Below, one piece after another: positions 9,474-31,525 of a stretch of DNA of 32,000 nt. Numbering within the stretch: position 1 is the first letter of the stretch; every line of letters begins with the position of its first letter. The notes beneath the pieces are model-generated. The model worked only from the letters and a program-made list of their open reading frames with translations. It made no database searches and had not been told where the DNA came from. Origin of the DNA: Candidatus Kuenenia stuttgartensis (lineage in GTDB: Bacteria > Planctomycetota > Brocadiia > Brocadiales > Brocadiaceae); NCBI RefSeq assembly GCF_900232105.1, contig NZ_LT934425.1, positions 3,870,001 to 3,902,000 on the forward strand. Reading direction: 5' to 3'. Made by a program: the position numbers and the translations under genes.

Positions 9474-9517
9474 CACGGCGCTCCACCGGAAGGCGGCGAA
9501 GTAGTTGCTGGTGAGCT

Positions 9518-9543: not shown

Positions 9544-9569
9544 GACGGTGCAACATAACACGGGTGGGT

Positions 9570-11550: not shown

Positions 11551-11692
11551 GAGGTATCGTTAAACGCATCTGTTTTTAGAGAAATCTAATATAACATCTT
11601 AATAGCGGTATGGTGGGTGGCACTGCCAAACTTGTTTGTCAGTGAAATTCCGCAGGAGACGGAATTCAGGCAATATACTTATAATGCAAGGT

Positions 11693-12262: not shown

Positions 12263-12425
12263 ACTCGTTGAATAAACAGATAATTAAATAAACGGTTTAT
12301 AAATGTAATACTATCGTATTATTCTGTAAAAAATTCTTTTTTGTAGGGGGTTTTGCATCTCCTCCTTGTGAAGGAGGGTAAAGAGGAGTGGTTCTCTTTC
12401 GTTGCGATTTTGCTGTGCTGTGAGA

Positions 12426-13466: not shown

Positions 13467-13868
13467 ATTGATTTCCCGCTTTGAGAGGGTAGAGAACAGG
13501 AACTGTGCGCGGGATAATTTGCGGAGCGACTTGGAGGGGTAAATGGATATCGCGAAGGCAAAGCAGCGATAATATGATGTACTGATACGACTTATGGAAC
13601 CTCAAATACAACGGCGATAAAAAAGTGTGGTGAGGAAGTGAGAGAAAAAAAATTATTTCCATCTTTTTGAAGTAGCGGGCATTTTGTTTAACTATGTGAT
13701 ACCTGCAAGGGTTGCATTCGTTTCAGTGGTATGCCAAAAATTTTGGGTAAAAAAAGCACCGGTTTTTTTTTGACACATAAAAACTCTTTTGATACTATCT
13801 CAATCCTTCGCGTACGATTGCGTATTCACAATCCAACCAAAACAAGCAACAAGAAATTAGGAATCACA

Positions 13869-15218
13869 ATGGAACCTTGTTCAAAAATATGGGATGATAT
13901 TCTTGAGAATGTCAGAGAGAAATTAGGCCCATTACGATTCAATCTGTGGTTCAAAAATACCCGTCTTGAGTCAATAGGTGATGCTTACGCAAGCATTGCC
14001 GTTCCTAACGTATTTACCCAGATGTGGCTGCAGGAGAATTTTTCCGGTTTGTTGAAAGAGGACATAGGGCGGTTTCTGAAGAGGAGCGACCTTGATGTAC
14101 GGTTTATACTGGACAACAAGCAGGAGAAAGAGATCGTATTGCCGGAAAAGCCTGATGTTGTTGATGAGAAGGGTGCGTATACGGGGAGGAAAGCACTGGG
14201 GTTAAACAAGGGTTTGTTGCTGGAGGATTTTGTGATAGGCCCCAATAACCGGCTTGCATATACGGCGGCCCTTGAAATGATAAAGGAGGAGTATCCGCCC
14301 TTTAATCCCCTTTTTATTCATGGGAATGTAGGGGTGGGGAAGACACATCTGCTTGTGGGGATATGGAATCGGGTCAGGAAAGAGCAGACGGTGAATGCGG
14401 TGTATATGTCTGCGGAGAAGTGGACGAATGAGTTTATCTATGCATTGCAGAAAGGGAAGATGGAGTCATTTAGGCAGAGATACAGGAATGTGGACGTATT
14501 TCTGATAGATGACGTTCATTTTTTATCCAACAAGCAGGGAGTGCAGGAGGAGTTTTTGCATACGTTTAATGCGTTGTATGATTCGTCAAAGAGGATAATA
14601 TTTGCGAGCGATGCCCATCCGAAGCAGATAAGCCAGTTGAAGGAGAATTTGGCGAGCCGGTTTATGTCGGGTATGGTGGCGCGCATAGAGAGGCCGGAGT
14701 ATGCGACGAGGTTGTTGATATTAAGGACGAAGGCATCGAAGTACGATGTGTATTTTCCGGAGGAGGCGCTGGAGTATATTGCGGAGAAGTTTGATGATAG
14801 TGTAAGAGAGGTGGAGAGCGCCTTGGTGACGTTGACGGCGCATGCCAGGTTTAATGACAGAAAGATAGACATTGCGTTTGTCAAAGATGTGTTGAAGGAG
14901 TTCTTTTACGGCGACGACAAGGTAGTAAAGGTGGAGGAGATAGAGGGTGCGGTGTTGCGGCATTTTAACATAAGCCGCAGTGACCTTCATTCGAGCCGGA
15001 AGGCGAAGACGGTATCGTTTCCGCGTCAGATATGCATGTATTTAATAAAAAATCAGTTGGATTGGTCGTATCAGCAAATAGGGAATTATTTTGGCAACAA
15101 GAAACATACGACAGTGATATTTGCGATAAAAAAAATAAACGAAGAATTGAAAAAAGATGACCAGTTTAAATCGTTCCTCGATATACTTATGGAAAAAATT
15201 AAAAAAAGTCGTAAATAG
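13869..15218 (+). CDS. dnaA: chromosomal replication initiator DnaA
   Basis: 449 aa from ATG 13869 (MEPCSKIWDDILENVREKLG... is the usual DnaA domain I start). It has the AAA+ Walker A GNVGVGKTHLL and a C-terminal DNA-binding domain (SFPRQICMYLIKNQLDWSYQQIGNYFGNKKHTTV). The track's 46-aa N-terminal extension looks non-coding. Confidence 0.95.
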   Translation: MEPCSKIWDDILENVREKLGPLRFNLWFKNTRLESIGDAYASIAVPNVFTQMWLQENFSGLLKEDIGRFLKRSDLDVRFILDNKQEKEIVLPEKPDVVDEKGAYTGRKALGLNKGLLLEDFVIGPNNRLAYTAALEMIKEEYPPFNPLFIHGNVGVGKTHLLVGIWNRVRKEQTVNAVYMSAEKWTNEFIYALQKGKMESFRQRYRNVDVFLIDDVHFLSNKQGVQEEFLHTFNALYDSSKRIIFASDAHPKQISQLKENLASRFMSGMVARIERPEYATRLLILRTKASKYDVYFPEEALEYIAEKFDDSVREVESALVTLTAHARFNDRKIDIAFVKDVLKEFFYGDDKVVKVEEIEGAVLRHFNISRSDLHSSRKAKTVSFPRQICMYLIKNQLDWSYQQIGNYFGNKKHTTVIFAIKKINEELKKDDQFKSFLDILMEKIKKSRK

Positions 15219-17101: not shown

Positions 17102-18448
17102 ATGTTTTCCCGGATAATGGTTGCAAATAGAGGTGAAATTGCTTTGAGAATCATTAGGGCATGCCGCGAAATGGGGATAGAGACTGTCGCTGTTTGCTCA
17201 AAATCGGATGCAAATGCCACTTATTTAAAGCTAGCCGATATCGTAGTGTGTATTGGACCTGCTGATGCGGAAGGTAGTTATTTAAATATTCCGAGCATCA
17301 TCAGCGCTGCAGAGATCACGGATATAGAAGCAATCCATCCTGGGTATGGTTTTTTATCGGAAGTGAGTCATTTTGCGGAAGTTTGTGAATCGTCAAATAT
17401 CGTATTTATTGGCCCGAAATCTGATGCATTGAGGAAGCTTGGCAATAAGACTGAAGCAAGGAAAATTGCAATAGAAAACAAGGTCCCTGTTGTTCCCGGA
17501 AGTTTGTCTGTAATAAAAAGTCAGCAGGAAGCGTTAAGCGTTGCACATGAAATAGGTTTTCCCGTAATCATTAAAGCTTCTTTAGGGGGCGGTGGACGGG
17601 GAATGCGGGTAGCTCATAATGATATAAGCCTCATTAATTCATTGACTATTGCCCAAAGAGAGGCTAAGGCTGCATTCAAGGATTCGTCTATTTATATAGA
17701 AAAATATATTGAAGATGCACGTCACATTGAGGTGCAAATAGTTGGAGATAATTACGGGAATATTATACATTTGGGCGAAAGGGACTGCACCATGCAGCGA
17801 AGACACCAAAAACTAATCGAAGAGTCCCCTGCACCATACATTACCGATCGGGCGCGGGAAGATATTTGTAAGGCTGCCATAAAAATGGCAAAATCCATTA
17901 ATTATACAAATGCCGGAACTGTTGAATTTTTATTAGATAAGGAAAATAATTATTATTTCATAGAGGTGAATACACGTTTGCAGGTAGAACATCCGGTTAC
18001 GGAAATGGTGACGGGAATAGATTTAGTGAAATTACAAATAAAGATTGCCAGTGGAGAGAGATTAAATATTAAACAGAAAAAAATTCGCAGTCAGGGGGTT
18101 GCTATAGAATGCAGGATCAATGCAGAAGATCCTTATAATGATTTTCGGCCGCAACCGGGGAAGATCACAAATTATCATCCTCCAGGAGGGAGAGGGGTTA
18201 GGGTGGATTCTCACATTCACTCCGGCTATGAAATCCCGCCGTACTATGATTCATTAATCGCTAAGTTGATTGTACATCAAAACACACGTGAGGAAGCAAT
18301 TGCCTGTATGCGTAGGGCATTGAGTGAATACGTTATCGAAGGAGTGAAAACTACCATTCCGTTACAATTGGATTTAATAACACATCCTCAATTTGCAAAT
18401 GGGAATATAAATACAAATTTTGTCGATAATCTTATGGCAAAAACTTAA
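17102..18448 (+). CDS. accC: acetyl-CoA carboxylase biotin carboxylase subunit
   Basis: 448 aa. Contains the ATP-grasp signatures [24 protein letters not shown] and [14 protein letters not shown]. Confidence 0.97.
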
Positions 18449-18483
18449 ATGGTAATTTTATTGATTTGGAAAACAATTTTTAG

Positions 18484-18512
18484 TTGACACAATAAAAAAA
18501 CCATGCTAGTGT
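18484..18512 (+). promoter_or_regulatory. candidate sigma-70 promoter for the cytochrome module
   Basis: TTGACA (18484-18489), a 17-nt spacer, then TGcTAGTGT (extended -10-like, with the -10 at 18507-18512). This would give a leader of about 350 nt before ATG 18867. Confidence 0.3.
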
Positions 18513-18866
18513 ATGCATCTACGTCCGATTATTCATTTCAAAAATTGCGATATGATGGCTTACTAAGCATAAGGGGTGTAATTATTTGAGATAAGGCTTG
18601 GAAATGTTTTTCAGCAAGCACCGCAATTCTATGCATCATTAAACTTCATATATACTTAGTTTCTCGATCTAATTCTTCATAAGTGGTAAAATTAATGGGT
18701 TTGGCAGATGTACTAAAGATAAATTATCATTAAAAAGGTTTGTGGTGATGCTATACGAGTATCGATTGTTGTGATTGGGTTAAGTTTTATTGTTTTAGGA
18801 GTTTCATATTTTTTAAGATTTTAATAGTTTAAGGTTATTTTTTGATTATGTGAAAGGAGCATTTAG

Positions 18867-19577
18867 ATGTTAAGAGGAAGAGTTTACAAGTCATTATTTG
18901 GTGGTTTGGTAATTTCATTTTGTTCTATTTCATTTGCAGTATCTGCGAAAGCAGCTGAGCCTAAATTTGTTAGTAATGCCGGCTGTAAGTGTCACATGTC
19001 TAAGGGATGTTATGAAGGGGAAGAATACAAAGAGAGATTGCATTCAAATACTTGGGAAAAAAGGTTGCAGGGGACAGCGGACGAAGATAATCCTGAATGT
19101 TTGAAGTGTCATGCAACGGCTGTGGGAGCGAAAATTAAGAAAAAATTTGGGGATAAAAAATATTTGCCAAATGTGCAGTGTGAGGCGTGCCACGGTGCCG
19201 GAGAAGAATATGAAAAGGTGAAGAAAAACTATCAGGGAAAGGGAAAGGACGCCTTTAAAGAATTGTTAAAGAAAGACCCTCTTCTTGCAAGAAAAGCACA
19301 ATATGACGCCGGCTTGATTGTTGCGGGCATAAATGGACCTGCTACGGTGAAAGAACAATGTCTGCAATGCCACTGGGAGAGCGCTGATGCTAAGAACAAG
19401 TGTCCTAAAACAGATAAAGTGATGGATTATAAAGAATATTTTAAGAAGGATGACCACCGCGACGAAGATGATATTGACCTTGTAATTAAGAAGCTCTCTG
19501 ATGCAGATAAGAAGAAATGGGCGGACATCTTGCCTAAAGACGATATGCTTTATTTGCCCTATAAGAAAAAACATTGA
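18867..19577 (+). CDS. secreted tetrahaem c-type cytochrome (3 CXXCH plus 1 contracted CKCH); putative HZS redox partner
   Basis: The signal peptide is (…SFAVSAKA/AEP). Haem motifs are CKCH (C40-H43), CLKCH, CEACH and CLQCH. A strong SD (GAAAGGAG) precedes the gene, which is the first in the same-strand cluster leading to hydrazine synthase. I recall the equivalent Kuenenia gene as kuste2854. Confidence 0.9.
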   Translation: MLRGRVYKSLFGGLVISFCSISFAVSAKAAEPKFVSNAGCKCHMSKGCYEGEEYKERLHSNTWEKRLQGTADEDNPECLKCHATAVGAKIKKKFGDKKYLPNVQCEACHGAGEEYEKVKKNYQGKGKDAFKELLKKDPLLARKAQYDAGLIVAGINGPATVKEQCLQCHWESADAKNKCPKTDKVMDYKEYFKKDDHRDEDDIDLVIKKLSDADKKKWADILPKDDMLYLPYKKKH

Positions 19578-19656
19578 TGGGTTTTGAGTTGTTACTTGAG
19601 TTATTATATCCCGATGGGTACCCCCAGTGTGGGAAAGGGACAGGAAGAGAAAGATT

Positions 19657-20700
19657 ATGAAATTAAAACAATTACTACGATTTATTAGACCGGGGTGTTT
19701 TTTCTTTATTGCTCTTGTTTCTGTAATAGGATTATGTTCTCGGGCCGCAGTACTGATTGCGGCCGAGAACGAAACATGTTATGGTTGTCATGCAGATCCG
19801 GAAAAAATAGAAAAGACCGAGAAGGCTAGGATTGACCCGGTTACGGGTGAAATTGAAGTTGTTTCTTTGATGATTGATAGGGAGGTTTTTGATAAAACTG
19901 CACATGGTGGAACAGACTTTTCCTGTACAGATTGCCATGCTTCATTGGAAGAGGCCGAAGATGATGACATTGCGGAAAATGGGCACAAACCTAATCTTAC
20001 GCCTGTTGACTGTATAACATTTTGTCATGACGACCCTGCTGCGGAATATTATGAAAGTAAGCATGTTAAGTTGATGAAGGAGAATGATAAGGACGTACCT
20101 ACGTGCAAGCATTGTCATGGAGGGGTTACTTATCATTTTTCTATATACGGAGAAAAAGCCCCGATGAATGTTCTTAGGGAAACTGACCCGCTACACAGAA
20201 AGTTGACAATAGATACATGTGGTTCTTGTCATGAAGAGCATCTTGCCAGCTATAGGAATAACGCACATGGTCAGGTTACTGCGCTTGGACATACCGCAAC
20301 GGATGTGCCTGTATGCTTTGATTGTCATGGAAAACACACTATTCTCAACTCGTCAGAACCTGAGTCTATGGTTGGACAAGACAACATAATTAAAACATGC
20401 GGTAGTTGTCACGCAAATGCAAATGCAAGCTTCGTGAAACATGTTGAACATCCTCAGATAAAAAATTTAAATTATTACAAGACCTTGCTTGCTGCAGCAA
20501 AAAATTATCGCAAAGATCCTGAAGCGTTGAAGAAAGTAGTTAAAAATCCCCAAACAATCCTATGTATTGTGTTTGTGGCGTATATTGGTATTCTAGCTTT
20601 AACATTTACCAAGTTTGGGCTCCATTCATTGTTAGGCTGGTTTGCTACAGTTCGTGACGAGTTTAGGAGAAAGGGGCATTCCGATGAAGAGCAACACTAA
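19657..20700 (+). CDS. membrane-anchored heptahaem c-type cytochrome (6 CXXCH plus 1 CX3CH)
   Basis: An N-terminal hydrophobic signal or anchor is present. Motifs are CYGCH, CTDCH, CITFCH (three residues between the Cys), CKHCH, CGSCH, CFDCH and CGSCH, with a C-terminal TM helix ILCIVFVAYIGILALTF. ATG 19657 is preferred over the track's GTG 19627. Confidence 0.9.
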   Translation: MKLKQLLRFIRPGCFFFIALVSVIGLCSRAAVLIAAENETCYGCHADPEKIEKTEKARIDPVTGEIEVVSLMIDREVFDKTAHGGTDFSCTDCHASLEEAEDDDIAENGHKPNLTPVDCITFCHDDPAAEYYESKHVKLMKENDKDVPTCKHCHGGVTYHFSIYGEKAPMNVLRETDPLHRKLTIDTCGSCHEEHLASYRNNAHGQVTALGHTATDVPVCFDCHGKHTILNSSEPESMVGQDNIIKTCGSCHANANASFVKHVEHPQIKNLNYYKTLLAAAKNYRKDPEALKKVVKNPQTILCIVFVAYIGILALTFTKFGLHSLLGWFATVRDEFRRKGHSDEEQH

Positions 20701-21529
20701 TTATTTAAGATTTACGCTGTTTCATAGATTCTGTCATTTTTTAACGATTATTAGTTTTTTTGGGCTAGTCTTGACTGGCTTACCACTCGCCTTTAGCGGT
20801 TATGATTGGGGGAGGTGGTTGTACGAGTTGTTTGGCGGATATCCTACGGCAGGATATATTCACAGGGTCAGCGCCTTAATCACTTTCTTTGCTGGTTTTT
20901 TACATTTCGCGTGGCTGTTTTTCAATGTATCTATTAAAAAGAAGAAAGGTTTTTTTTGGGGACCTAATTCAATGCTTTTGCAACCAAGAGATCTTTTTGA
21001 TGTAATAGCAGACATCAAATGGTTTATTGGTATTGGCAAAAGGCCGAATTTTGATAGATGGATTTATTGGGAAAAGTTTGAATATCTCTCTTTGATGTGG
21101 GGAACTATTGTTATGGCCGCTACCGGCTTAATTCTTTGGTTTCCTGTTCAGTTTACAAAAATTATTCCCGTTTCGGTTGCCAGCATCTTCGATATCCCCG
21201 GTATTGCGTTGATTATCCATCGATATGAAGCAATACTGGCGGCTGTTTTTATTTTCACAATTCATTTCATTCACACGCACTTACTGCCTGAAAAAATGCC
21301 AGTAGATGAATCGATATTTACAGGGAGAATAACGGAGGCTGAGTTTAAACATGAGCGCCTTGGTGAATATGAAAGGCTAAAAAATCAAAGACAGTTGGAT
21401 AGTTTTAAGGTAGCGCCTCCATCTCTTTTCGCAAAATTTTTATCAAGGCTGATTGCTGTACCACTTTTGATCACTGGGTTAATATTGGTGAGTCTGATGG
21501 TCTCTGCGCTTGTTGTTTGGGCGCTATAG
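20684..21529 (+). CDS. cytochrome b-like integral membrane protein (FdnI / Ni-Fe-hydrogenase cytochrome b type), probable quinol-interacting subunit
   Basis: About five predicted TM helices carry conserved His residues (HRFCHF, IHRVSALITFFAGFLH, IIHRYEA, TIHFIHTH). ATG 20684 has an SD (AGGAGAAAGGGG) and overlaps the heptahaem gene's stop by 17 nt, which suggests translational coupling. Confidence 0.8.
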   Translation: MKSNTNYLRFTLFHRFCHFLTIISFFGLVLTGLPLAFSGYDWGRWLYELFGGYPTAGYIHRVSALITFFAGFLHFAWLFFNVSIKKKKGFFWGPNSMLLQPRDLFDVIADIKWFIGIGKRPNFDRWIYWEKFEYLSLMWGTIVMAATGLILWFPVQFTKIIPVSVASIFDIPGIALIIHRYEAILAAVFIFTIHFIHTHLLPEKMPVDESIFTGRITEAEFKHERLGEYERLKNQRQLDSFKVAPPSLFAKFLSRLIAVPLLITGLILVSLMVSALVVWAL

Positions 21530-21611
21530 TAGATAAAAATTTTGTAGCAGGCGGATGCTATACTGTTAAGTCCGAATCAATTAAATGCTTGATATATTTC
21601 AAGGTGGAATA

Positions 21612-23003
21612 ATGACTTACAGGGTATTAATAGCTGATGATGAAGAACGCATGCGACGCGTGCTAACGATGATATTCGAGGAGATGAAAGATGTTAAAGT
21701 TGTTGCGGGAAACAGCTTTGAGGATGTCCTCCGCTATTTAGATAAAGAGAGGTTTCACCTTTTAATTACAGACCTAAAGGTTCCTGGCAGTAATAGTATC
21801 GATTTTATCAGGGCGGTGAAAAATAAGGTAGCGGATATCCCAATCATCGTGTTGACCGCTTATGGTTCTGTTGGTTTTGCCATTGACATTATGAAGGAAG
21901 GCGTCTTTGATTATCTGGTTGCGCCTTTCGATAACGATATTTTAGAATTGGCGGTAAAAAGAGCTTTAAAAGTAAGCTCATTGACTATTGAAAATAAAAA
22001 CCTACGCAAGGCGTTAGAGTTGCAATATAACTTTGGGAATATTATCGGCAACTCTCCAAGTGTTGTTGAAACATTGCGGCTGGTAGGCGAAGTTACAAGA
22101 ACCGACTCCACCGTTCTGGTCACTGGTGAAAGTGGTACAGGTAAAGAGCTGGTGTCAAGAGCGATACATTACAACAGCGATAGAAAGTGTGGTCCCTTTG
22201 TGGCGCTTAATTGTGCTGCAATTCCTGAGAATTTACTAGAAAGTGAATTGTTTGGCTACGAAAAAGGGGCATTTACAGGAGCTGAAAAGACTAAGAAGGG
22301 ACGATTTGAGTTAGCCGCTGGCGGGACTTTTTTTTTGGATGAAATTTCCGAGATGTCTGCGGCAGTACAGGCAAAAGTTCTTAGAATAATTGAATCGAAA
22401 GAGCTGGAACGGCTTGGTGGTACGGATACGATAAAGGTTGATGTCCGGATTATATGTGCAACAAATAGAGACCTTGTACAGATGGTAAAAGAGGGAAAGT
22501 TTCGGGATGATCTCTATTACCGCATCAGCGTCTTTCCAATAATGCTGCCCGCTTTAAGGGAGAGAAGTGGGGATATTATCCCGCTGAGCAAACATTTTGT
22601 TAATCATTTTTCAGCAAAAATGGGCAAGACTCCGATTGTATTAAGTTCTGAAGTTGAAAAGATATTAATAAAGCACAAATGGGAAGGTAACATAAGAGAA
22701 TTGCAAAACATTATTGAACGCGCAGTAATTTTGTGTAAAAACGGCGTTATAAGAACAGAGCATCTTCCTACTTCTATTGTGCATGGTTACACCCCTCCGG
22801 AATTAAATGAAAACATTTCACAAAATAATTCCGTTAATTTTGACATACCACCTAATGGCCTGTCGCTTGACGATCTGGAAAAACAATTAGTTGCGAAAGC
22901 ATTAGAAAGAAGCAAAAACAACATCACAAAAGCCGCAAAACTTTTGGGATTAACACGAGGGACATTCCGCTATCGGTTGCAGAAATATGGAATATCAAAT
23001 TAG
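21612..23003 (+). CDS. sigma-54-dependent Fis-family transcriptional activator (NtrC-type response regulator) with an atypical receiver domain
   Basis: The receiver has ADDE and ITDLKVPG. The AAA+ domain has GESGTGKE, the sigma-54 contact loop GAFTGA and FFLDEI, and the C-terminus is a Fis-type HTH (ITKAAKLLGLTRGTFRYRLQKYGI). The start at ATG 21612 follows AAGGTGGA. Confidence 0.95.
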   Translation: MTYRVLIADDEERMRRVLTMIFEEMKDVKVVAGNSFEDVLRYLDKERFHLLITDLKVPGSNSIDFIRAVKNKVADIPIIVLTAYGSVGFAIDIMKEGVFDYLVAPFDNDILELAVKRALKVSSLTIENKNLRKALELQYNFGNIIGNSPSVVETLRLVGEVTRTDSTVLVTGESGTGKELVSRAIHYNSDRKCGPFVALNCAAIPENLLESELFGYEKGAFTGAEKTKKGRFELAAGGTFFLDEISEMSAAVQAKVLRIIESKELERLGGTDTIKVDVRIICATNRDLVQMVKEGKFRDDLYYRISVFPIMLPALRERSGDIIPLSKHFVNHFSAKMGKTPIVLSSEVEKILIKHKWEGNIRELQNIIERAVILCKNGVIRTEHLPTSIVHGYTPPELNENISQNNSVNFDIPPNGLSLDDLEKQLVAKALERSKNNITKAAKLLGLTRGTFRYRLQKYGISN

Positions 23004-23174
23004 CAAGACATTGCGCATTTAACATCAAAGTATGTCAAATTTGCAATAATAAGCTATGTAAAATGGCTGATAACTGCCGTTAAAAATGACTTGTGTTAAG
23101 AGCATCAAAGTGTCTGTGTGTACAAGTAATTGTTTCTTCATATATTATGGACAATGTACAAATTGTTCAGTTGT

Positions 23175-23190
23175 TGGTATGAATTGTGCT
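23175..23190 (+). promoter_or_regulatory. candidate sigma-54 (-24/-12) promoter upstream of the Cys-rich ORF and hzs genes
   Basis: TGGTATGAATTGTGCT has GG at 23176-77 and GC at 23188-89 with the canonical 12-nt offset. It matches 9 of 12 specified positions of TGGCACG-N4-TTGCW, lies 71 nt before ATG 23261, and sits directly downstream of a sigma-54 activator gene. Confidence 0.45.
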
Positions 23191-23260
23191 TAGTTCTTTT
23201 GTCGTGCAAATTTTAAATCAGTAGTTTTTTATAAAATTAAGGAGAGGGGGTGAAAGTGAA

Positions 23261-23806
23261 ATGAAGAAAGGTATTATAGTTTTGCTGGGTATTTTTAGTA
23301 TGTTATTTGCCGTAGTACATTCTAGTTATGCTTTGTGGGACAAGCCTTGTGGTAAGAGGCAGATTATGGAGGTTTACTACTGTAAGGATTGCAAAGAGGT
23401 CCGAGAGTTTGATGAATGTTCTGAGATTGGTTACATATGGGATTTCAAGGCACACAAAGACGCTGGTGATAAAAAACATACTAGTCTTCCTTCAGCATGG
23501 GGATGTCAGAAAATTGCTTATAGCTGTATAAACACTGCCTGTGAAGCATATGGCAAATGCATACCGCATCCTGGCATTTGCGAAATATGTATGGATGATA
23601 TTACCAGCACTAAGGTATGGTCAAGAGTAACATTTAAATGCCCTAAATGTGGTACAGAATATGAAGAACCCGGCAAAAATTTTAAGGTGAAGGAAGGCTT
23701 ACACCCTGCACAGTTGCAAACAGGTGGAGAATGTGAAGCTTGTGGCGGCGTTGAACTTGAAATCGTATGCGAGAAGTCCGGTACATGCCCACATGTTGAA
23801 AGATAA
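23261..23806 (+). CDS. secreted cysteine-rich protein of unknown function (16 Cys, four CXXC pairs, no CXXCH)
   Basis: 181 aa. The signal peptide is MKKGIIVLLGIFSMLFAVVHSSYA, with a strong SD (AAGGAGAGGGGG). CKDC, CEIC, CPKC and CEAC pairs suggest zinc-ribbon-like knuckles. The gene lies immediately upstream of the hydrazine synthase genes. Confidence 0.8.
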   Translation: MKKGIIVLLGIFSMLFAVVHSSYALWDKPCGKRQIMEVYYCKDCKEVREFDECSEIGYIWDFKAHKDAGDKKHTSLPSAWGCQKIAYSCINTACEAYGKCIPHPGICEICMDDITSTKVWSRVTFKCPKCGTEYEEPGKNFKVKEGLHPAQLQTGGECEACGGVELEIVCEKSGTCPHVER

Positions 23807-23836
23807 TTCAGTAATAGATTTTATGATCATTTTTAT

Positions 23837-24997
23837 GTGGTGATTAGGAGGAAAATGAATAAGATGATACGAAAGGGAATGATAGGAGCGGTGATGCTTG
23901 GAGCTGCGGTAGCGATAAGTGGCGGAGTAGCGACTGCGGGGTATATACAGGGTACGCATGTAAAGACGGATTTACCCGGGCCGTTTCACATAACGATGTC
24001 GCCGGATGGTAGTACGTTATTTATATCGAATCAATCTGGGCACAGTGTAACGTTTGTGGATGCAAGGACGCAGAAGGTAACGGGTGAGGTCGCTGTGAGG
24101 GTACAGCCTGAGGCTTCAGCGGTTACGCCTGACGGGGCATTTTTGTATGTATGTAATGCAGAGAGCGACAGTGTATCGGTAGTGGACATACAGAGGAAGC
24201 AGGAGATCAAGGAGATAAAGGTAGGTGACTGGCCGAGCGGGATCAAGATTTCGCCTGATGGCAAGACTGCCTATGTTGCATGTTCCGGTTGCATGTGGAA
24301 CGCGATTGATGTAATTGATACGGGGAGGATGGAGAAGGTAAGGTCGATATATACTTCAGATTACGGTCCCAGGATGGTGGAGATATCTCCTGATGGGAAG
24401 ACCCTTGTTGCGATACTTGACACGGTAGGATCGATCAACCGGAGCGTTGATTTTATTGACATTGCCAGTGGCAGGGTAGTAGAGAACAGGGTAATCCATG
24501 AGAGTTCCAACCTGAGGGATGTTGTATATACGCCGGATGGTAAATACATAGCTGTAACCCACCAGACGCCGAAGAACTGGTTGCCGGTATGTGAAGCGGA
24601 GAATGGTCAGGTATTTACGAACAACGTAACAATCATAGAGACCAAGGCCGGTGGTAAGGTAGCGAGATTACCGTTGGACGATCTCAACAATTACGATGGC
24701 AATCCGTATGGTATGGCGATGGACCCTAAGGGCAAGTATTTGTACATTGGGGTAAGAGGGATGCATCGTGTAACGATACTGGATATGGATAAGGTATTGG
24801 GTCTGGTGAGGAGCAGCACGCAGGAGGAGCTTGATTATCTGAGGGACGACCTTGGGTTGGTAAGAGATTATCTTGTTGCCAGGGTTCCTACGGGTCTGGG
24901 GCCAAGTTCGGTATGTTTATCACCTGACGGCAAATTTTGTTATGCGGCCAACTATTTTTCCAACAATGTAACCGTGATAAGGACTGCGGTTGATTAA
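23837..24997 (+). CDS. hzsB: hydrazine synthase beta subunit (seven-bladed YVTN-type beta-propeller)
   Basis: A signal peptide is followed by seven blade signatures (MSPDGSTLF, VTPDGAFLY, ISPDGKTAY, ISPDGKTLV, YTPDGKYIA, MDPKGKYLY, LSPDGKFCY). ATG 23855, directly after AGGAGG, or ATG 23864 are more likely starts than GTG 23837. The B/C gene naming is inconsistent in the literature; here B means the propeller subunit. Confidence 0.9.
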   Translation: MVIRRKMNKMIRKGMIGAVMLGAAVAISGGVATAGYIQGTHVKTDLPGPFHITMSPDGSTLFISNQSGHSVTFVDARTQKVTGEVAVRVQPEASAVTPDGAFLYVCNAESDSVSVVDIQRKQEIKEIKVGDWPSGIKISPDGKTAYVACSGCMWNAIDVIDTGRMEKVRSIYTSDYGPRMVEISPDGKTLVAILDTVGSINRSVDFIDIASGRVVENRVIHESSNLRDVVYTPDGKYIAVTHQTPKNWLPVCEAENGQVFTNNVTIIETKAGGKVARLPLDDLNNYDGNPYGMAMDPKGKYLYIGVRGMHRVTILDMDKVLGLVRSSTQEELDYLRDDLGLVRDYLVARVPTGLGPSSVCLSPDGKFCYAANYFSNNVTVIRTAVD

Positions 24998-25039
24998 GGA
25001 TTGTATGGAGTGTGAGAGTTATTTATTTTTGGAAAACAA

Positions 25040-26101
25040 ATGGCAAGAGAAATGAGATTAGGAGGAAAAGAAAGAATGAAGACAGGAGTAGTGAAAATAG
25101 GATTAGTTGCGGCCCTGGGGGTAGTGGGGCTGATATCGGCGGGCGGCGTATATGCCGGTCAGCCGCGGGTAATTTCCACGATCCAGACGGGAGCTACGTG
25201 GGAACCGCTGGGAAGGGAAGAACCTTTGACGGTGCCGGAAGTGCATTTCCGTGTAAAGCATTCACCTTTTAAGAGTGAGCTGGTAAGATACGGGCAGTTC
25301 CAGTTTAACGATGCAGCGTGGAGTTTGCAGGGATCATACTCATGCGCCAGTTGTCATTATGAGAGAGGCCAGACAACCGGTTTGATTTGGGATTTGGGAG
25401 ATGAAGGATGGGGTAGCTGGAAGAACACGAAGTATATTCGTGGCGGCCGATATCTTCCTCCGTTCAGGCATGAGGGGTTCACTGGTCATCCTGATGAAAT
25501 AGTAGGGGCAACCAGTTCACTTGACAGGGTATGTGGAAGGGATCCTGGATTTGTGTTCAGGAGTGAGAATTTTTCTCCGATGAGATTAGAGGCGCTCATT
25601 TGTTACATCAGGGCGTTGGAATTTACCGGGAGTCCATTCAGGAATGCGGATGGAAGTTTAACCGAAGCCCAGAAGAGGGGTCAGAAGATATTTGAGGATC
25701 CGAAGGTAGGATGTCTTGAGTGTCATCCTGGCGATCCGATGGATCCGAGGGCATTGTTCAGTGATGCACAGACGCATGATGTAGGAACCGGCAGGGTAGG
25801 TGTAAATGGTTTCAGGTCAACACCTGGGAAGGTATTTAACATATCGGCGTTAGAGGCAGGTGAGGATCCATATGGTGTTGAGAGCAACACACCAATCATT
25901 GGATTGGATCTTGTGAAGGAATTTGATACGCCGACATTGAGAGACATCTATGCATCAGGCACCTATTTCCATGATGGTGGTGCAAGGACATTGATGGACA
26001 CCATAAACAACACGGTAAATGATAAGGACATGCATGGAAGGACGTCTCATTTAAAGCAGCAGGAGCTCCAGGATTTGGTGGAGTACCTGAAGGCGTTATA
26101 A
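25040..26101 (+). CDS. hzsC: hydrazine synthase gamma subunit (dihaem, cytochrome c peroxidase/MauG-like)
   Basis: Two CXXCH motifs are present (CASCH, CLECH), along with a signal peptide. Numbered from ATG 25040, Cys165 (tgt 25532-25534) coincides with the extra haem-linked cysteine I recall from the Kuenenia HZS structure. An alternative start is ATG 25076, after AGGAGG. Confidence 0.9.
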   Translation: MAREMRLGGKERMKTGVVKIGLVAALGVVGLISAGGVYAGQPRVISTIQTGATWEPLGREEPLTVPEVHFRVKHSPFKSELVRYGQFQFNDAAWSLQGSYSCASCHYERGQTTGLIWDLGDEGWGSWKNTKYIRGGRYLPPFRHEGFTGHPDEIVGATSSLDRVCGRDPGFVFRSENFSPMRLEALICYIRALEFTGSPFRNADGSLTEAQKRGQKIFEDPKVGCLECHPGDPMDPRALFSDAQTHDVGTGRVGVNGFRSTPGKVFNISALEAGEDPYGVESNTPIIGLDLVKEFDTPTLRDIYASGTYFHDGGARTLMDTINNTVNDKDMHGRTSHLKQQELQDLVEYLKAL

Positions 26102-26174
26102 GAGAGAAGTGTATGAATGTGTAGTATAAGCGATAAAAATTTAAGGACAATAAGTGAAAGGAGAAGGCCAATAG

Positions 26175-28604
26175 ATGGGTAAGAGGAAATTAGGAGTGAT
26201 AGCATCGGCGTTTGTAGCGGGTGCGTTGGTCTGTGGGAGTACCCTTGTGAATGCTGAGCCTGTAATGACAGGCGGCCCGGTGCAGGGGAAGGCCTTATGG
26301 ACTGATTATAGTGGGATGTCAAAAGAGGTGCAGGGTCCTGTGAGTCAGATATTGTTTACGCAGTCGCCGAGGACAGCCAAAGGGGATCCGTACCAGAACT
26401 ATCCGCACTATATACCGGAAGGAAGCCGGATAGTGTTATTTGATTTAAACACAAAGGAATTGAAGGTATTGACCAATGATTTTGCAACAGCCTTTGATCC
26501 ATGCACCTATTGGGACGGCAAGAAATTTGCGTTTGCCGGGGTACACAAGAAAGGCGGCGGGTGCCAGATATGGGAAATGAACATAGATGGCAGTGGTTTA
26601 AGGCAGATGACTGATCTTAAGGGAACCTGCCGTTCACCGATTTATTATGCAGCGGGAAGTATTGAAGAAGGCGAAGGCCGTATCATATGGCGTGACCGGT
26701 ATTTTGAAGGGGACTGGAAAGAGCATGGCATGGTAGAGAAGACGGGCATGATAATATTTTCAGGTTCACCGGAAGGCGTAATGGATGAGTTCCACAATCC
26801 ATATGCGTATAATCTTTACCGTTTGGATACGCAGGGCGGTAAGATCATACAGAGAATCACCGGACACGTGCTATCTGGCATAGAGTTTCCGCACCTCAAT
26901 ACCACGATAGACCAGATCACCTACAATTTAAGTTCCAACTTTGATCCATGGTTAACTCCTGACGGAAACATCCTTTTCTCAAGCGTGCAGGCAAATGGCA
27001 GCAGGGCTGGCGGAGAAGGCAGGGTGATGATTTGTGTGGACAACTGGGATGGTGCGTATCCAAGGCCTATCTATGGAAACTGTGATGGGGAAATCGGTGG
27101 CACCAGCGGAAGGTCTCAGGCGAAGATCACCTTTGGAGACAGGAAGATTGTCTATGTTGAGTCTCCGTACATGAATTGGGGCGTAGGTCAGTTGGCAGCG
27201 GTGAGCTGGGATGCTCCGTTCAACAAGACGTATGAGAAGTTGACAGGAAAAGATGGTGGATTGTACAGGAGTCCATATCCGCTTCCGGACGACAGGATGT
27301 TGGTATCCTATGCAGAAAGAGGGGATTTTGGCATATACTGGTTTAATTTTAGCAAATGTGCTGCAGGGGACAAGGTATATGATGATCCTAACTGGAATGA
27401 TCACCAGCCTGCGCCGGTTTATGTGAAGTACAAGCCAAGGTGGATTAACACCTTTACCGCCGGTAAGAACTTTGGTGTAACGGTCGTAACGTATCAGCCG
27501 TTTGATCAGGTGAAGGTGGAAGGATATCCGCATTCATGGGGAACATGGATATGCTTTGATACGACATTGTCAGATCAGCCTGTAGGTCCTTATCCGCATC
27601 AGAAGGCAAAAAACGTAAGCCATGGAGATATCAAGGCAGTAAGAATCATCCAGGGATATCAGTGTGTAGAACCGGATTCAACCCGTTTCAGGGTAGGGGC
27701 TGGAGCACATCTTCTTGGTGGAGAGAGATCAAGCAGCAATTCAGGTACAGCATTTCAGCAGAGGGGTATCATCGGGTATCAATATGTAGAGAGCGATGGT
27801 TCAACAGTTACATCCCAGCTTTCAGATGTTCCTTATTACATGCAGATATTGGATGATAAGGGTATGTCCGTACAGACTGCTTTAACCTGGGCATATTTAA
27901 GGCCATATCATGGCAGGATTTGTAGTGGATGTCACTATGGATCATATCGTGGAAGGGCGTTCAAGAACATCCATGCAAAGGCGTTGTACAACTGGTGGTA
28001 TGATGACAGAAGCCACTATGATTCACCATTTGCGTTCAGGTATTTGAAGTTTGACAACGATGGGAATTACAAGGGCGTAAAACATGGAGAGGATGTAGTA
28101 GTACCATCTGACATTTACTATGGTGGTCCATCCGGAACGACATCACAGCCGGTGGAAGGATTGACGCTGGATAAGCAGAGGACGGTGGATTTCCGCAGGG
28201 ACATTCAGCCGATACTTGATGCGAAGTGTGCGATGTGTCATGATTCGAACAATCCTCCGAACCTTGGTGGCGGATTGGAATTGGTAAGTGTAGATGGTAT
28301 AGCAGCATACAGTCGTGCATACAACAGCTTGCTTGAGCCGCAGAGGGGGAAAGACCCGAACATTGGCGGAAAATATGTTAATCCGTCAGCAGCGATCAAC
28401 AGTTTGTTGGTATGGAGGTTGTATGAAGCTGAGTTAAGCGCGAATGCTCCCAGGGAGAAGATATTCCCGATAGAGGGTCGTTTATTGCACAATAAATTCC
28501 TTACTCAGGATGAGAGATATGCGATAGTAGAGTGGATAGACCTGGGTGCGCAGTGGGATAACATTCCGGGACCAGATTTTTATCCTGGATATCTTGTAAA
28601 ATAA
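26175..28604 (+). CDS. hzsA: hydrazine synthase alpha subunit (beta-propeller plus two c-haem domains)
   Basis: 809 aa with a signal peptide. Haem motifs are CSGCH (C583-H587) followed by Y591, and CAMCH (C685-H689), with Cys303 in GNCDG. These residue numbers match what I recall for the unusual Tyr-ligated, Zn-associated haem of Kuenenia HZS-alpha. Confidence 0.95.
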   Translation: MGKRKLGVIASAFVAGALVCGSTLVNAEPVMTGGPVQGKALWTDYSGMSKEVQGPVSQILFTQSPRTAKGDPYQNYPHYIPEGSRIVLFDLNTKELKVLTNDFATAFDPCTYWDGKKFAFAGVHKKGGGCQIWEMNIDGSGLRQMTDLKGTCRSPIYYAAGSIEEGEGRIIWRDRYFEGDWKEHGMVEKTGMIIFSGSPEGVMDEFHNPYAYNLYRLDTQGGKIIQRITGHVLSGIEFPHLNTTIDQITYNLSSNFDPWLTPDGNILFSSVQANGSRAGGEGRVMICVDNWDGAYPRPIYGNCDGEIGGTSGRSQAKITFGDRKIVYVESPYMNWGVGQLAAVSWDAPFNKTYEKLTGKDGGLYRSPYPLPDDRMLVSYAERGDFGIYWFNFSKCAAGDKVYDDPNWNDHQPAPVYVKYKPRWINTFTAGKNFGVTVVTYQPFDQVKVEGYPHSWGTWICFDTTLSDQPVGPYPHQKAKNVSHGDIKAVRIIQGYQCVEPDSTRFRVGAGAHLLGGERSSSNSGTAFQQRGIIGYQYVESDGSTVTSQLSDVPYYMQILDDKGMSVQTALTWAYLRPYHGRICSGCHYGSYRGRAFKNIHAKALYNWWYDDRSHYDSPFAFRYLKFDNDGNYKGVKHGEDVVVPSDIYYGGPSGTTSQPVEGLTLDKQRTVDFRRDIQPILDAKCAMCHDSNNPPNLGGGLELVSVDGIAAYSRAYNSLLEPQRGKDPNIGGKYVNPSAAINSLLVWRLYEAELSANAPREKIFPIEGRLLHNKFLTQDERYAIVEWIDLGAQWDNIPGPDFYPGYLVK

Positions 28605-28662
28605 GAGAGGTTATTAACAGCATTTTATATAGTTGTGGTAAGTAGTAAGAGGTAAAACAAGC

Positions 28663-28710
28663 GAAGAGCCGGGGAAAAGTGGCAAAACCACGTCCCGGCT
28701 CTTTGTGCTT
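28663..28710 (+). terminator. rho-independent terminator candidate after hzsA
   Basis: aagagccggg (28663-28672) pairs with cccggctctt (28693-28702). The loop contains a small gtgg/ccac stem and is followed by tgtgcttcc (T-poor tail). It lies 59 nt after the hzsA stop. Confidence 0.5.
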
Positions 28711-29018
28711 CCAGAGAGATTTGCATGTTTACCGAATAAGCATGAAGCACAAATTCTCCAATTTTTAATGCATCTTTGCGGACAAGTGTTGTTTGTAACA
28801 TATTTAGTTGCAATTGGATATTACAGCCGCCACATGTAGTGGCAAGGCGTGTATTGCTACTACATTAAATATTTGGGATTTTCAATATTTCTAGACCTAA
28901 AACAAGCGTGATTTAACAATCTACACACAATGGGATAATATTTTGGACTATTATGCGTCTCTAAATGTATTTTTTGTTTGTTTCGTCGCGAAAAAACCTT
29001 ACTAAAAAGAAAAATATT

Positions 29019-29044
29019 GTAACACTTTAGTTCTTTGAAAAATT
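29019..29044. repeat. left terminal inverted repeat of the IS66 element
   Basis: Exact reverse complement of 31361-31386. The transposase stop codon (29043-29045) overlaps it. Confidence 0.9.
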
Positions 29045-30476
29045 AACAAGCGATATTATAAGTTAAGCCGGAAGTGGTTTTTGTTAAAAGAGCTTTTTTG
29101 GCGTATGCCAGAAGGTTTTCCACGGGGTTGTCTCCTTGCAATTCTGCAGAGCGAAGCAACGTCATAAGGATAGCCTGGGTATTGGCGCCCTGAACAGAAC
29201 GATTCTGTTGTGATACCTTTCGGGTCAATACTGGCTTTCGCATCTGTTGCTCGGCATGATTATTATAGGGACTCACACCTTCATGTTCCAGGAACGTAAA
29301 GAGTTCCTGTTTATGGCGCTTCAGGCGTTTGGTCAATCTTTGTACGTCTTTATCCTGACAAGGCGTTGCCAAAAACTGTTCAAGCCTGCGATACAATCTT
29401 TTTTTTAGCCGAAGAAAGCATACCAGGCTTATCTGGTTCTTTTTCTCTGATAACCGGATGGCATCCTTGAGCAACCGGGAGAGTTTTTTCCGGAAAGCTT
29501 TCCATGCGGCAGAATGGTTGTGGGCATCTACTTTCACGAGTTCCGTGAACAGATGATAGAAACACCGCTGCTTTGCCAGTGCGCTTATCTTGTTGTAAGC
29601 GCCCAGAAAGTCACAGATCAGGATACCACCAAATAGAATGCCCAAGAGTTTTTTTATGACAGGAGACCCCCGACTTGGTGTTATGAGATAGTAGCAGAGT
29701 TTTTGTGTTGTAAAACACCATAGCCAATGGGTTTTTCCATTCAACCTCCATCCGGTTTCATCTGCATGTAAGACAGCGCTTGCGGAGACTTTTTGGCCAA
29801 TCTCGTTATACTGTGGCTCCAGGAGTGTTGCAAGGGATTTCCATGCCTGGGTTAGACCGCCGGCGCTTATTTGAAGGTTGAAAAATACGGAAAGCATCTT
29901 TACGATGTTGTTTACACTGATACCGATTAAGTAGTGAAGCCATGCGGTAAAGACAACAAGGCGCAATCCTAGTCGGGCGCCATGCAACGCATCTGTGACC
30001 TTGGGTTGAACTATCTTTTTGCAACAAGCACACCAGTAACCATGAACTGTATGTTCCGTCACAACAGGGTCAAGGCGTGGAATATCTTCGATGTATCGCT
30101 TATAAGTTCTTACCGGTTTTTGTAATGGCTGGTGGCAATCAGGGCAACTCTCCATGGAATGCGTTTGATAGGCAGTTACTGTTTCAGGTCGTTTCCGGCA
30201 AACTCCCTTATGTCCCTTTTTCCTGCCACAAGGCCGTTTTCTCTTTTTCTTTGTGGGCTTTAGATAGGGCGGTATCGAACCGGAAGGGGTAGTCGGACCC
30301 GGTTTATCGCAAAGCCGGTCATATTTTTCTGCTTTCTCCGCCAGTATCAGGATGGCTTGAATCGCATCCTCTCTGTCCATCTCCAAAATAGCTATGGCTT
30401 CATCCCTGGTCACAGTCAAGAAACCTCCGAAAGTTTTTTTGAAGAGGGTAGAGGTAGAGATCCTTAGGTTGGCCAT
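29043..30476 (-). CDS. IS66-family DDE transposase (start uncertain; see the frameshift finding)
   Basis: Contains the zf-IS66 motif CPDCHQPL...YWCACCKKIV and the DDE_Tnp_IS66 core LHADETGWRLNGKTHWLWCF...ILICDFLGAYNKI. The frame is open to 30581. In-frame ATGs lie at 30476 and 30380. Confidence 0.9.
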   Translation of the reverse strand: MANLRISTSTLFKKTFGGFLTVTRDEAIAILEMDREDAIQAILILAEKAEKYDRLCDKPGPTTPSGSIPPYLKPTKKKRKRPCGRKKGHKGVCRKRPETVTAYQTHSMESCPDCHQPLQKPVRTYKRYIEDIPRLDPVVTEHTVHGYWCACCKKIVQPKVTDALHGARLGLRLVVFTAWLHYLIGISVNNIVKMLSVFFNLQISAGGLTQAWKSLATLLEPQYNEIGQKVSASAVLHADETGWRLNGKTHWLWCFTTQKLCYYLITPSRGSPVIKKLLGILFGGILICDFLGAYNKISALAKQRCFYHLFTELVKVDAHNHSAAWKAFRKKLSRLLKDAIRLSEKKNQISLVCFLRLKKRLYRRLEQFLATPCQDKDVQRLTKRLKRHKQELFTFLEHEGVSPYNNHAEQQMRKPVLTRKVSQQNRSVQGANTQAILMTLLRSAELQGDNPVENLLAYAKKALLTKTTSGLTYNIAC

Positions 30477-31281
30477 GATACAGATAGCGATTGCCCCGTT
30501 TTGCGCTCCCTTTGGTTTTGCCAGCACGAATCCAATTGGCCGCCTGATAGCAGGTACCCTTAAACCGCGCGGTATCAACAAAGGTTTCGGCTAAATAAAC
30601 GGGATGGCCGTAAACGGTATTCCAGTCATCTGACAGACGTCTGAGGGCAAGTGACAATACCTTGGATGCAAGGTGTTTGATCTTAACCCATGGTAGAATG
30701 AGAAATCGTACGTTATTTGCAATCAAATGTAAGTGTGTACGTTTAGTCGTCTCATCCCATTCAATGAAACGATCACGGTCTTTGACTTTCCATGCGGCGC
30801 TTGCCCACCCCAGGCAGGCAACAACCTGATTGCCTATACGTACGATGTGTCTGAGGTGTTCGCCAACAAGCCGGGGATTGCCGAGGTAGTGATAGTGTTG
30901 GAAGAGATACTCCCAGAGATATCTTTCCTGAGGGTCTTTTACCACATGGATTGTCAGGTTTTCATACTCTGTGATTTTACCTTCTAGTGGTCTCCTGACG
31001 AAAAGGGGTGTCTGGACAAAGACCTTGGGTTTCAGATTGTTTTTGGCCCGTATACGTGGAGGAAGCGTTATCAATCCCTGTTCTTCTAATCTCAAAAGGA
31101 GGTCTCGTGCTGCGTATTCTTTATGTTTGCCATTGGGCTGCACCCAGTTCCAATGCTTGCATAGTTCGCAGGAAATATAAGTCCGACCTCTGAGAAAATG
31201 CTGCTCGATGAGCGCCTTTATAAAGGCGATATCGTCCGCATGCAGTTTTCGTGAACGGTATTGGAATATGATAGGCTTCAT
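30400..31281 (-). CDS. DUF4338-like protein (the domain also found in Druantia DruA) encoded inside the IS66 element
   Basis: 293 aa. YHYLGNPRLVGEHLRHIV...ACLGWASAAWKVKDRDRFIEWD...IANNVRFLILPWVKIKHLASKVLSLALRRLSDDWNTVYGHPVYLAETFVDTARFKGTCYQAANWIRAGKTKG matches the DUF4338 pattern as I remember it. Confidence 0.8.
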   Translation of the reverse strand: MKPIIFQYRSRKLHADDIAFIKALIEQHFLRGRTYISCELCKHWNWVQPNGKHKEYAARDLLLRLEEQGLITLPPRIRAKNNLKPKVFVQTPLFVRRPLEGKITEYENLTIHVVKDPQERYLWEYLFQHYHYLGNPRLVGEHLRHIVRIGNQVVACLGWASAAWKVKDRDRFIEWDETTKRTHLHLIANNVRFLILPWVKIKHLASKVLSLALRRLSDDWNTVYGHPVYLAETFVDTARFKGTCYQAANWIRAGKTKGSAKRGNRYLYHGQPKDLYLYPLQKNFRRFLDCDQG

Positions 31282-31360
31282 AAACTGTTTCCCTTTATTG
31301 AAGCCTTTTATACCACAAAGGAAAAACAGACGCCAGCTTTTTTTACCTTTTTTCGCTATT

Positions 31361-31386
31361 AATTTTTCAAAGAACTAAAGTGTTAC
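31361..31386. repeat. right terminal inverted repeat of the IS66 element
   Basis: Exact reverse complement of 29019-29044. Confidence 0.9.
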
Positions 31387-31525
31387 AAAATATTACTATT
31401 GATCGAGAAAACTACCATACTTTTGCAAGGTGATTACGTACCGCGCCCGCTCTTCTTCTGTTTTCTATTTCTTTTTTACTGTTAAACTACTATTCCATGC
31501 ACAGTTTTAATCTTAGGATTCGTTC

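Follow-up and report, generated by a model that had tools for sequence, protein, structure and literature searches.

The 32,000-nucleotide stretch of DNA from Candidatus Kuenenia stuttgartiensis that was analyzed here (referred to below as the window) carries eight consecutive genes at positions 18867–28604, which are with near certainty the electron transfer module (ETM)-linked hydrazine synthase (HZS) gene cluster kuste2854–2861 of this organism. The first five (genes 1–5) encode, in this order, a soluble tetrahaem cytochrome c known as KsTH, a membrane-anchored heptahaem cytochrome c, a cytochrome b-like membrane protein, an NtrC-family response regulator, and a predicted secreted Cys-rich protein, and they are followed by hzsB, hzsC, and hzsA, which encode the β, γ, and α subunits of the enzyme. 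The cluster is a rediscovery of a well-studied locus, the core finding being already known, crystal structure and locus tags included, since published tables list the genes as kuste2854–2861 with functions that match those assigned here. Finding the locus again adds nothing as such, because it has been described, purified, and crystallized since 2006–2015.

Anammox, for which hydrazine synthase is the key enzyme, is responsible for much of the nitrogen lost from the oceans and is also exploited in the treatment of wastewater. Three side results of the present analysis may be new, namely a predicted sigma-54 element that co-occurs with gene 4, the loss of a conserved receiver Lys from the gene 4 proteins of Kuenenia and Brocadia-type bacteria, and a tiny lineage-restricted family to which gene 5 belongs. 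Joined together, these lead to a tentative proposal, held at somewhat less than even confidence and drawn from sequence comparison, in which HZS expression in Kuenenia, Brocadia-type, and Scalindua bacteria would be controlled by kuste2857 acting at a sigma-54 promoter that precedes kuste2858-hzsBCA, with a non-canonical input to the receiver where the Lys has been lost (Kuenenia and Brocadia-type). Other anammox lineages would have swapped this switch for sigma-70 promoters, kuste2858 may be a metal-binding accessory factor of HZS, and a metagenomic locus without HZS genes (L043) hints at an older regulator–target module that the HZS genes may have joined. The co-occurrence of the predicted sigma-54 promoter with the activator gene offers a testable handle on regulation in organisms for which there is no genetic system, and kuste2858 is the one conserved component of the cluster without an assigned role.

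Identity of the cluster and its supply of electrons

The DNA of the window is 99.5–99.98% identical to K. stuttgartiensis assemblies (CP049055.1 included), and the source is therefore an anammox bacterium, which settles a check put forward in the preliminary description, made from the sequence of this DNA. The exact gene 5 sequence recurs in K. stuttgartiensis assemblies behind the same upstream neighbors (dnaA-like, M24 peptidase, accB, and accC). All eight open reading frames (ORFs) lie on the plus strand and fill the interval with inter-gene gaps of −59 to 73 nt, the single exception being a gap of 257 nt before gene 5, the largest in the cluster. In re-sequenced strains, hzsABC is present as two full clusters beside an additional hzsBC; the copy present in the window is the ETM-linked one.

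The assignment of the three distal genes rests on direct identity, in that residues 28–809 of HzsA, residues 35–386 of the 386-residue HzsB ORF, and residues 40–353 of HzsC are 100% identical to chains A (α), B (β), and C (γ), respectively, of PDB entries 5C2V/5C2W. The three proteins also score 1546, 719, and 725 bits against the NCBIfam equivalogs NF052339, NF052340, and NF052341, whose cut-offs are 800, 560, and 625 bits, respectively. The middle domain of HzsA matches PF18582 HZS_alpha (E = 8e-24), HzsB matches Pfam models of seven-bladed propellers and has no haem motif, and HzsC matches Pfam CCP_MauG; HzsA and HzsC have two CXXCH motifs each. In precursor numbering, C583, C586, H587, and Y591 of the haem αI site as well as C685, C688, and H689 of the second CXXCH, for haem αII, are present in HzsA, and C102, C105, and H106 are present in HzsC. 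Also in place are C303 of HzsA, C165 and D168 of HzsC, and E253 of HzsB, residues that are reportedly described in Dietl et al. 2015. The literature assigns roles to the key residues of the α and γ subunits, among them Tyr591 as the proximal ligand and a His587-bound Zn at haem αI (PMC12607021), and haem γI is held by three Cys links.

The preliminary description had placed eight co-oriented genes in this interval, given the locus tags kuste2854–2861, and judged the core enzyme to be described already; the ORF limits are exactly as it gave them, the tags and gene functions agree with the published tables, and the chains of 5C2V/5C2W are identical to the encoded proteins. Its naming of the distal proteins as HZS β, γ, and α, for which it had suggested BLASTP or profile comparison with HZS subunits and the crystal structure, is borne out by top matches to HZS chains at 100% identity and by scores beyond the subunit equivalog cut-offs, and the key residue numbering, which it had also cited as a match, agrees with the literature (α C583/C586/H587/Y591 and γ C102/C105/H106 in the present analysis). 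The numbers of haem sites that it had counted (four in gene 1, seven in gene 2, and two each in the γ and α subunits) are likewise correct.

A comparison with other anammox genomes, also suggested there, showed that genomes of the Brocadia type and one labelled Scalindua keep the order of the eight genes. A scan of one genome per species turned up relatives of HzsA in 36 loci, nearly all of which bear the label Brocadiales, Planctomycetota, Kuenenia, Brocadia, Jettenia, Scalindua, or Anammoxibacter; the best match was in K. hertensis (91%), K. stuttgartiensis itself not being among the matches. Searches with all eight proteins (tblastn) found the full order 1-2-3-4-5-B-C-A in three Brocadia-type clusters (L008, L013, and L030) and in the Scalindua-labelled L036, and the same order without gene 4 in L016, L026, L027, L029, and L034; together with the window, these make up the ten full clusters compared below. 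In front of second copies of hzsBCA that have no ETM (L002, L014, and L018) lies the gene of a paralogous sigma-54 activator, which is 40% identical to gene 4. A fusion of the β and γ subunits, which the preliminary description had ascribed to Scalindua, was seen in none of 14 readable loci and is represented solely by the NCBIfam model NF052342. In the sole Scalindua-labelled locus (L036, 7500–10000), hzsB and hzsC are interrupted by numerous frameshifts and in-frame stops, and the locus is too error-ridden to judge fusion; as assembled, its γ subunit appears to start behind the β stop with a Met and a signal peptide of its own and would thus be unfused. Three contigs of 2.6–3 kb with hzsA at 81–83% identity (L003, L010, and L021) were binned in Terriglobia, Ignavibacteria, and Bacteroidales metagenome-assembled genomes, and these most likely represent binning contamination rather than HZS outside anammox bacteria.

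Proteins identical to those encoded here have been shown to form an αβγ complex that produces hydrazine (NO + NH4+ + 3 e- -> N2H4), with a reduced haem γI that binds NO and a haem αI that is ligated by Tyr and whose potential is very low. The published working model places the reduction of NO to NH2OH at haem γI and, after passage through a tunnel, the condensation with NH3 at haem αI. Following that model, HzsB, HzsC, and HzsA would be exported and would assemble into an αβγ heterotrimer and then into its dimer, in which electrons would enter at haem γII and pass to haem γI, allowing a three-electron reduction of NO to hydroxylamine. The hydroxylamine would then travel through an internal tunnel, with a loop of the β subunit serving as its gate, to haem αI, at which its reaction with ammonia would form the N–N bond of hydrazine.

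The electrons for this reaction are proposed to be delivered by the products of the first three genes, kuste2855 and kuste2856 being described as a membrane-bound electron transfer module and kuste2854 as a soluble carrier (PMC12053348, PMC8862662), and the route would lead from menaquinol to gene 3, to the membrane-anchored heptahaem cytochrome of gene 2, and on to soluble KsTH. Reduced KsTH fully reduces haem γI in vitro, as reported by citing papers (PMC12607021). Gene 1, a match to Pfam Cytochrome_C554, encodes three CXXCH motifs and a contracted CKCH (residues 40–43), which is invariant in all ten orthologous clusters, and has the signal peptide and the location in the HZS cluster that are expected of KsTH. 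The CKCH is what Ferousi et al. 2019 reported for the tetrahaem protein as a “contracted haem-binding motif”, as relayed in PMC7096707 and PMC12607021, and the count of four haems in the preliminary description holds only if this non-canonical site is included, as was done in that work according to the same sources; an older annotation of kuste2854 reads “triheme”. Gene 2 was rightly described as heptahaem and membrane-anchored, with six CXXCH and one CXXXCH (CITFCH, kept in nine of the ten clusters), matches to Pfam cytochrome c7/paired-CXXCH models, an N-terminal hydrophobic segment, and a C-terminal transmembrane segment. Gene 3 has about six transmembrane segments, nine His residues that are invariant in the ten clusters, and no haem c motif, which, with its sub-cut-off matches to b561 and FdoI models, upholds its earlier description as a cytochrome b-like membrane protein. 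A sequence search for solved structures of the products of genes 1–3 found none.

Nothing speaks against the identification of the cluster; two caveats attach to this electron route. The passage from quinol via kuste2856 and kuste2855 to KsTH is a literature model that is itself worded as “potential” or “putative”, and gene 3 remains under the curated cut-offs of the families in question (24.8 versus 30.1 bits for PF01292 and 28 versus 115.9 bits for TIGR01583), such that its product resembles the cytochrome b561/FdoI family and is not assigned to it as a member.

A predicted sigma-54 promoter and its candidate activator

The 257-nt gap before gene 5 contains a predicted −24/−12 element, TGGTATGAATTGTGCT, of the form GG-N10-GC, which matches nine of the 12 specified positions of TGGCACG-N4-TTGCW and is the sole match in the window to TGGYAY-N6-TGCW. 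The chance of such a match per intergenic gap is ~0.002–0.003, and the weight of the element as a promoter comes from its position and conservation. Each of the four other clusters that encode gene 4, distant L036 included, has a −24/−12 element at a distance of 83–88 nt upstream of its gene 5 orthologue (at 6877 in L008, 6974 in L013, 6958 in L030, and 6810 in L036), and over the ten full clusters it is present in five of five with gene 4 and absent or decayed in five of five without. When the five gaps are aligned, the element and the ribosome-binding site stand out as conserved islands against a background of 57% identity.

The clusters without gene 4 are informative in their own right. L016 (6544–7136) retains a remnant of gene 4, consisting of its last 56 codons at 80% identity, beside which the element has become TGGTAC-N6-TGTT, with the GC of the −12 half mutated to GT. 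The same Brocadia-type genome holds a second hzsBCA copy with a paralogous activator (L018). In the regulator-less L034 (6844–7111), a near-consensus sigma-70 promoter, TTGACA-N17-TATAAT, lies upstream of the gene 5 orthologue, and in L029 (6648–6923), which is regulator-less as well, that place is taken by an extended −10 sequence, TGTGAGTATAAT. The second hzsBCA copies that have a paralogous activator carry (T/C)GGTAY-N..-TTGC about 190–215 nt before hzsB.

The candidate activator of this promoter is the product of gene 4, which the preliminary description had called a sigma-54 activator and in which the receiver, the AAA+ domain with GAFTGA, and the HTH_8 domain of such a protein are all present. 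These correspond to PF00072, PF00158 Sigma54_activat (241 bits), and PF02954, the GAFTGA and Walker A (GESGTGKE) motifs are intact, and there is no haem motif. The protein is not AtoC, NtrC, or ZraR proper, because it reaches the cut-off of no NCBIfam equivalog. In its receiver, D18, D19, D63, and T91 are retained, and the position of the conserved Lys (equivalent to K109 of CheY) is taken by Ala113; the Brocadia-type orthologues have Thr at this position, and the Scalindua-labelled L036 orthologue as well as the paralogues have Lys. The loss of this Lys from the Kuenenia and Brocadia-type proteins suggests a non-canonical signal input, and no kinase gene is present within the cluster. The Brocadia-type orthologues have GAFTSA or GAFTNA in place of GAFTGA.

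The most economical reading of these data, inferred from sequence features, is that the cluster comprises two transcription units. Genes 1–4 would be transcribed from a possible sigma-70-type promoter, for which the candidate is TTGGCA-18-TATCAT, the best plus-strand match to the sigma-70 consensus in 18300–29200; the consensus scan for sigma-70 promoters and terminators showed overall no enrichment over shuffles. The unit of gene 5 and hzsBCA would be transcribed from the sigma-54 promoter upon activation by the NtrC-type regulator of gene 4, and it would end at a hairpin behind hzsA. This hairpin was spotted by eye and then confirmed by folding (−28.5 kcal/mol, z = −4.57, none of 200 shuffles folding as well) and leads into a U-rich tract; owing to the length of its loop, it had escaped the consensus terminator scan.

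A different model, which is considered doubtful, is that of a single constitutive operon in which all eight genes are transcribed from upstream of gene 1, the GG-N10-GC element has another role or none, and gene 4 has its targets elsewhere. Such an operon would fit the co-orientation of the eight genes, the short gaps between them, and the lack of any terminator-like site after gene 4 in the consensus scan, and three of the five element-bearing loci are closely related Brocadia-type ones, such that shared ancestry could explain part of the conservation. It accords less well with the size of the gap before gene 5 and with an element that remains a conserved island and is kept, with a different spacer, in the distant Scalindua-labelled locus. 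It is further disfavored by the way in which the loss of the element tracks the loss of gene 4, down to the mutated −12 GC beside the remnant in L016, by the sigma-70-like promoters that are found in its place in L034 and L029, and by the TGGTAC-N..-TTGC upstream of those second hzsBCA copies whose activator is a paralogue.

The reading of two transcription units with a sigma-54 switch faces difficulties of its own, some of which the single-operon model shares as points in its favor. TGGTATGAATTGTGCT departs from the consensus at three of the 12 specified positions, and one TGGYAY-N6-TGCW match in 32 kb is not significant alone, with 0.61 expected. According to published proteomics, HZS is about 100-fold more abundant than kuste2858, and an operon with a single promoter would therefore need extra post-transcriptional or internal-promoter effects. 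As for activator-binding repeats, 23004–23260 contains weak inverted repeats only (e.g. a palindrome at ~23031–23048), and no upstream activating sequence is claimed. In the library of papers that was searched, none linked hydrazine synthase to a sigma-54 promoter, which is not proof of novelty.

The kuste2858 family

The product of gene 5 had been described as a secreted Cys-rich protein, and it does have a signal-peptide-like N-terminus and 16 Cys. It belongs to a tiny lineage-restricted family, with 24 relatives among 5.8 billion clusters and 20 representatives among 1.84 billion proteins, the named close members of which are from anammox bacteria. The family conserves, strictly or almost strictly, all 16 Cys, a DDITS motif, and two His, and it also has a C-terminal C-x-SGTCPHV motif. 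No Pfam or NCBIfam family matches the protein, which has no recognizable fold, and no meaningful match emerged when PDB sequences were searched with a profile. The AlphaFold 2 model, built from an alignment of 23 sequences, is poor (predicted local distance difference test, pLDDT, of 64; predicted template modeling score, pTM, of 0.44), and a Foldseek search with it against the PDB returned nothing below E = 1, the weak matches being mostly zinc-ribbon proteins. The protein has been detected in published proteomes.

Three distant relatives (P0040–P0042) share the C-terminal C-x-SGT-x-PHV and have borderline matches to zinc-ribbon and HMBD models. The locus of P0040 (L043, 3860–6474, metagenomic) has no hzs genes but contains an NtrC-type activator and a single-domain response regulator upstream, and a perfect sigma-54 consensus, TGGCAC-N5-TTGCA, is located at 5437, upstream of P0040; the locus of P0041 has no such neighbor. 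A further metagenomic protein, P0033 (824 aa), combines a long N-terminal region of repeated “...SVTNISNNS...PQINNSGQVVW” units with the C-terminal half of the kuste2858 domain, which could reflect either a genuine fusion or read-through in gene calling.

One explanation, which we regard as improbable, is that gene 5 is no unrelated passenger and encodes a dedicated accessory factor of HZS, e.g. a metal (Zn) chaperone or assembly factor of the anammoxosome lumen with zinc-ribbon/HMBD-like CXXC pairs. In favor of such a role are the location of gene 5 right before hzsB in each of the full clusters compared, the conserved Cys, DDITS, and His residues, and the small size of the family (~20 in 1.84 billion), whose named close members come from anammox bacteria, and the zinc-ribbon and HMBD resemblances, the binding of Zn by HZS α at His587, and the detection of the protein in proteomes point in the same direction. 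Against this stand the second hzsBCA copies, which do without gene 5, the crystal structure of HZS, which contains the α, β, and γ chains only, and the distant relatives in loci without hzs. The protein furthermore has no significant family or fold match and only a low-confidence model, and its cysteines could simply form disulfides.

Flanking DNA and comparison with known systems

Table 1. Genes and predicted regulatory features of the hydrazine synthase locus (positions are those of the window)
Feature	Position	Strand	Size or location
Candidate sigma-70-type promoter of genes 1–4 (TTGGCA-18-TATCAT)	18701–18730	+	137 nt before gene 1 ATG
Gene 1, kuste2854/KsTH, soluble tetrahaem cytochrome c, putative direct electron donor of HZS	18867–19577	+	236 aa
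Gene 2, kuste2855, heptahaem cytochrome c with C-terminal membrane anchor	19627–20700	+	at most 357 aa; annotated/probable start ATG 19657, 347 aa
Gene 3, kuste2856, cytochrome b-like (FdoI/b561-type) membrane protein, proposed quinol-oxidizing subunit	20642–21529	+	at most 295 aa; annotated/probable start ATG 20684, 281 aa
Gene 4, kuste2857, NtrC-family sigma-54-dependent response regulator	21585–23003	+	472 aa
Predicted sigma-54-type −24/−12 element, TGGTATGAATTGTGCT	23175–23190	+	71 nt upstream of gene 5, in 257-nt gap
Gene 5, kuste2858, predicted secreted Cys-rich protein	23261–23806	+	181 aa
hzsB, kuste2859, hydrazine synthase β, cofactor-less seven-bladed propeller	23837–24997	+	at most 386 aa; probable start ATG 23855; mature from G35
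hzsC, kuste2860, hydrazine synthase γ, dihaem CCP/MauG-like	25040–26101	+	353 aa
hzsA, kuste2861, hydrazine synthase α, dihaem	26175–28604	+	809 aa
Probable intrinsic terminator of the hzs operon, hairpin followed by UUUGUGCUU	28661–28706	+	57 nt after hzsA stop

Upstream of the cluster, the window carries housekeeping genes (1–13139), namely a purine/uridine phosphorylase-family gene (−), thrS, infC, pheS, and pheT, as well as genes for a 615-aa radical SAM protein (−), a phosphoribosyltransferase (−), and a TPR protein (−). These are followed at 13731–15218 (+) by a DnaA-family gene (DnaA_N, Bac_DnaA, and Bac_DnaA_C domains), which lies ~3.6 kb upstream of the HZS cluster, within a local GC peak (0.475), and near 2.47 Mb in CP049055.1. 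Downstream, an IS66-family transposase and an overlapping DruA-domain (PF14236) ORF occupy 28754–31400, from 150 nt after hzsA (minus-strand ORFs at 29043–30581 and 30400–31281), and the same pair follows the cluster in some K. stuttgartiensis assemblies; the IS66-family element is present in CP049055.1 and OCTL01000126.1 and missing from CAADGZ010000078.1. Strain alignments break at 28753/28754, at which the K. stuttgartiensis assembly L040 has a dinB-like gene, indicating that the IS66/DruA segment is a strain-variable insertion.

Among regulators of the NtrC family, gene 4 compares well with NtrC1 of Aquifex (PDB 1NY5/4L4U; E = 3e-98 to 4L4U), with which it shares the receiver-AAA+-HTH_8 architecture, the GAFTGA, and the Walker A motif, and the predicted −24/−12 element downstream of its gene adds to the likeness with the NtrC family. 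It differs from that family in that the receiver Lys is replaced and a cognate kinase gene is absent from the cluster. The electron transfer genes recall the modules of FdoI/FdnI-type cytochrome b and multihaem cytochrome c, in that the membrane protein of gene 3 has conserved His and is weakly similar to b561/FdoI proteins, and its gene overlaps that of a membrane-anchored multihaem cytochrome (gene 2). Unlike in those modules, the family matches remain below cut-off, the catalytic subunit of formate dehydrogenase is absent, the partner cytochrome is heptahaem, and the function is that of a literature model.

HzsC belongs to the same dihaem fold family as the dihaem cytochrome c peroxidases (CCP), MauG, and MbnH, but it scores far under the cut-offs of those families and differs from them by a third covalent Cys link to haem γI, by its membership in a heterotrimer, and by its reduction of NO. 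That the distal genes might be generic YVTN-propeller and MauG/CCP paralogues, or the source not an anammox bacterium, which the preliminary description had named as refuting outcomes, has a vanishingly small probability and is already refuted. The β subunit does match generic propeller families and γ does match CCP_MauG and MbnH-type models at low scores, but the top matches are HZS chains at 100% identity, the subunit-specific equivalog cut-offs are passed, and the identity of the DNA to K. stuttgartiensis assemblies is 99.5% or higher.

The same gene order, with an optional regulator, is found at 40–92% amino-acid identity in the HZS clusters of genomes that are Brocadia-type, Anammoxibacter, groundwater Brocadiales, or Scalindua-labelled, and these clusters conserve the CKCH and CXXXCH motifs. 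They depart from the window in that five of the ten full clusters are without the sigma-54 regulator and the −24/−12 element and in that many anammox genomes hold extra ETM-less copies of hzsBCA. The closest counterpart is the hydrazine synthase of K. stuttgartiensis itself (kuste2859–2861; PDB 5C2V/5C2W) with kuste2854–2858, which is the same system, as gene order, annotations, and flanks agree, and from which the window departs at the level of strains only, by 0.02–0.5% of the DNA and by the variable IS66-family element.

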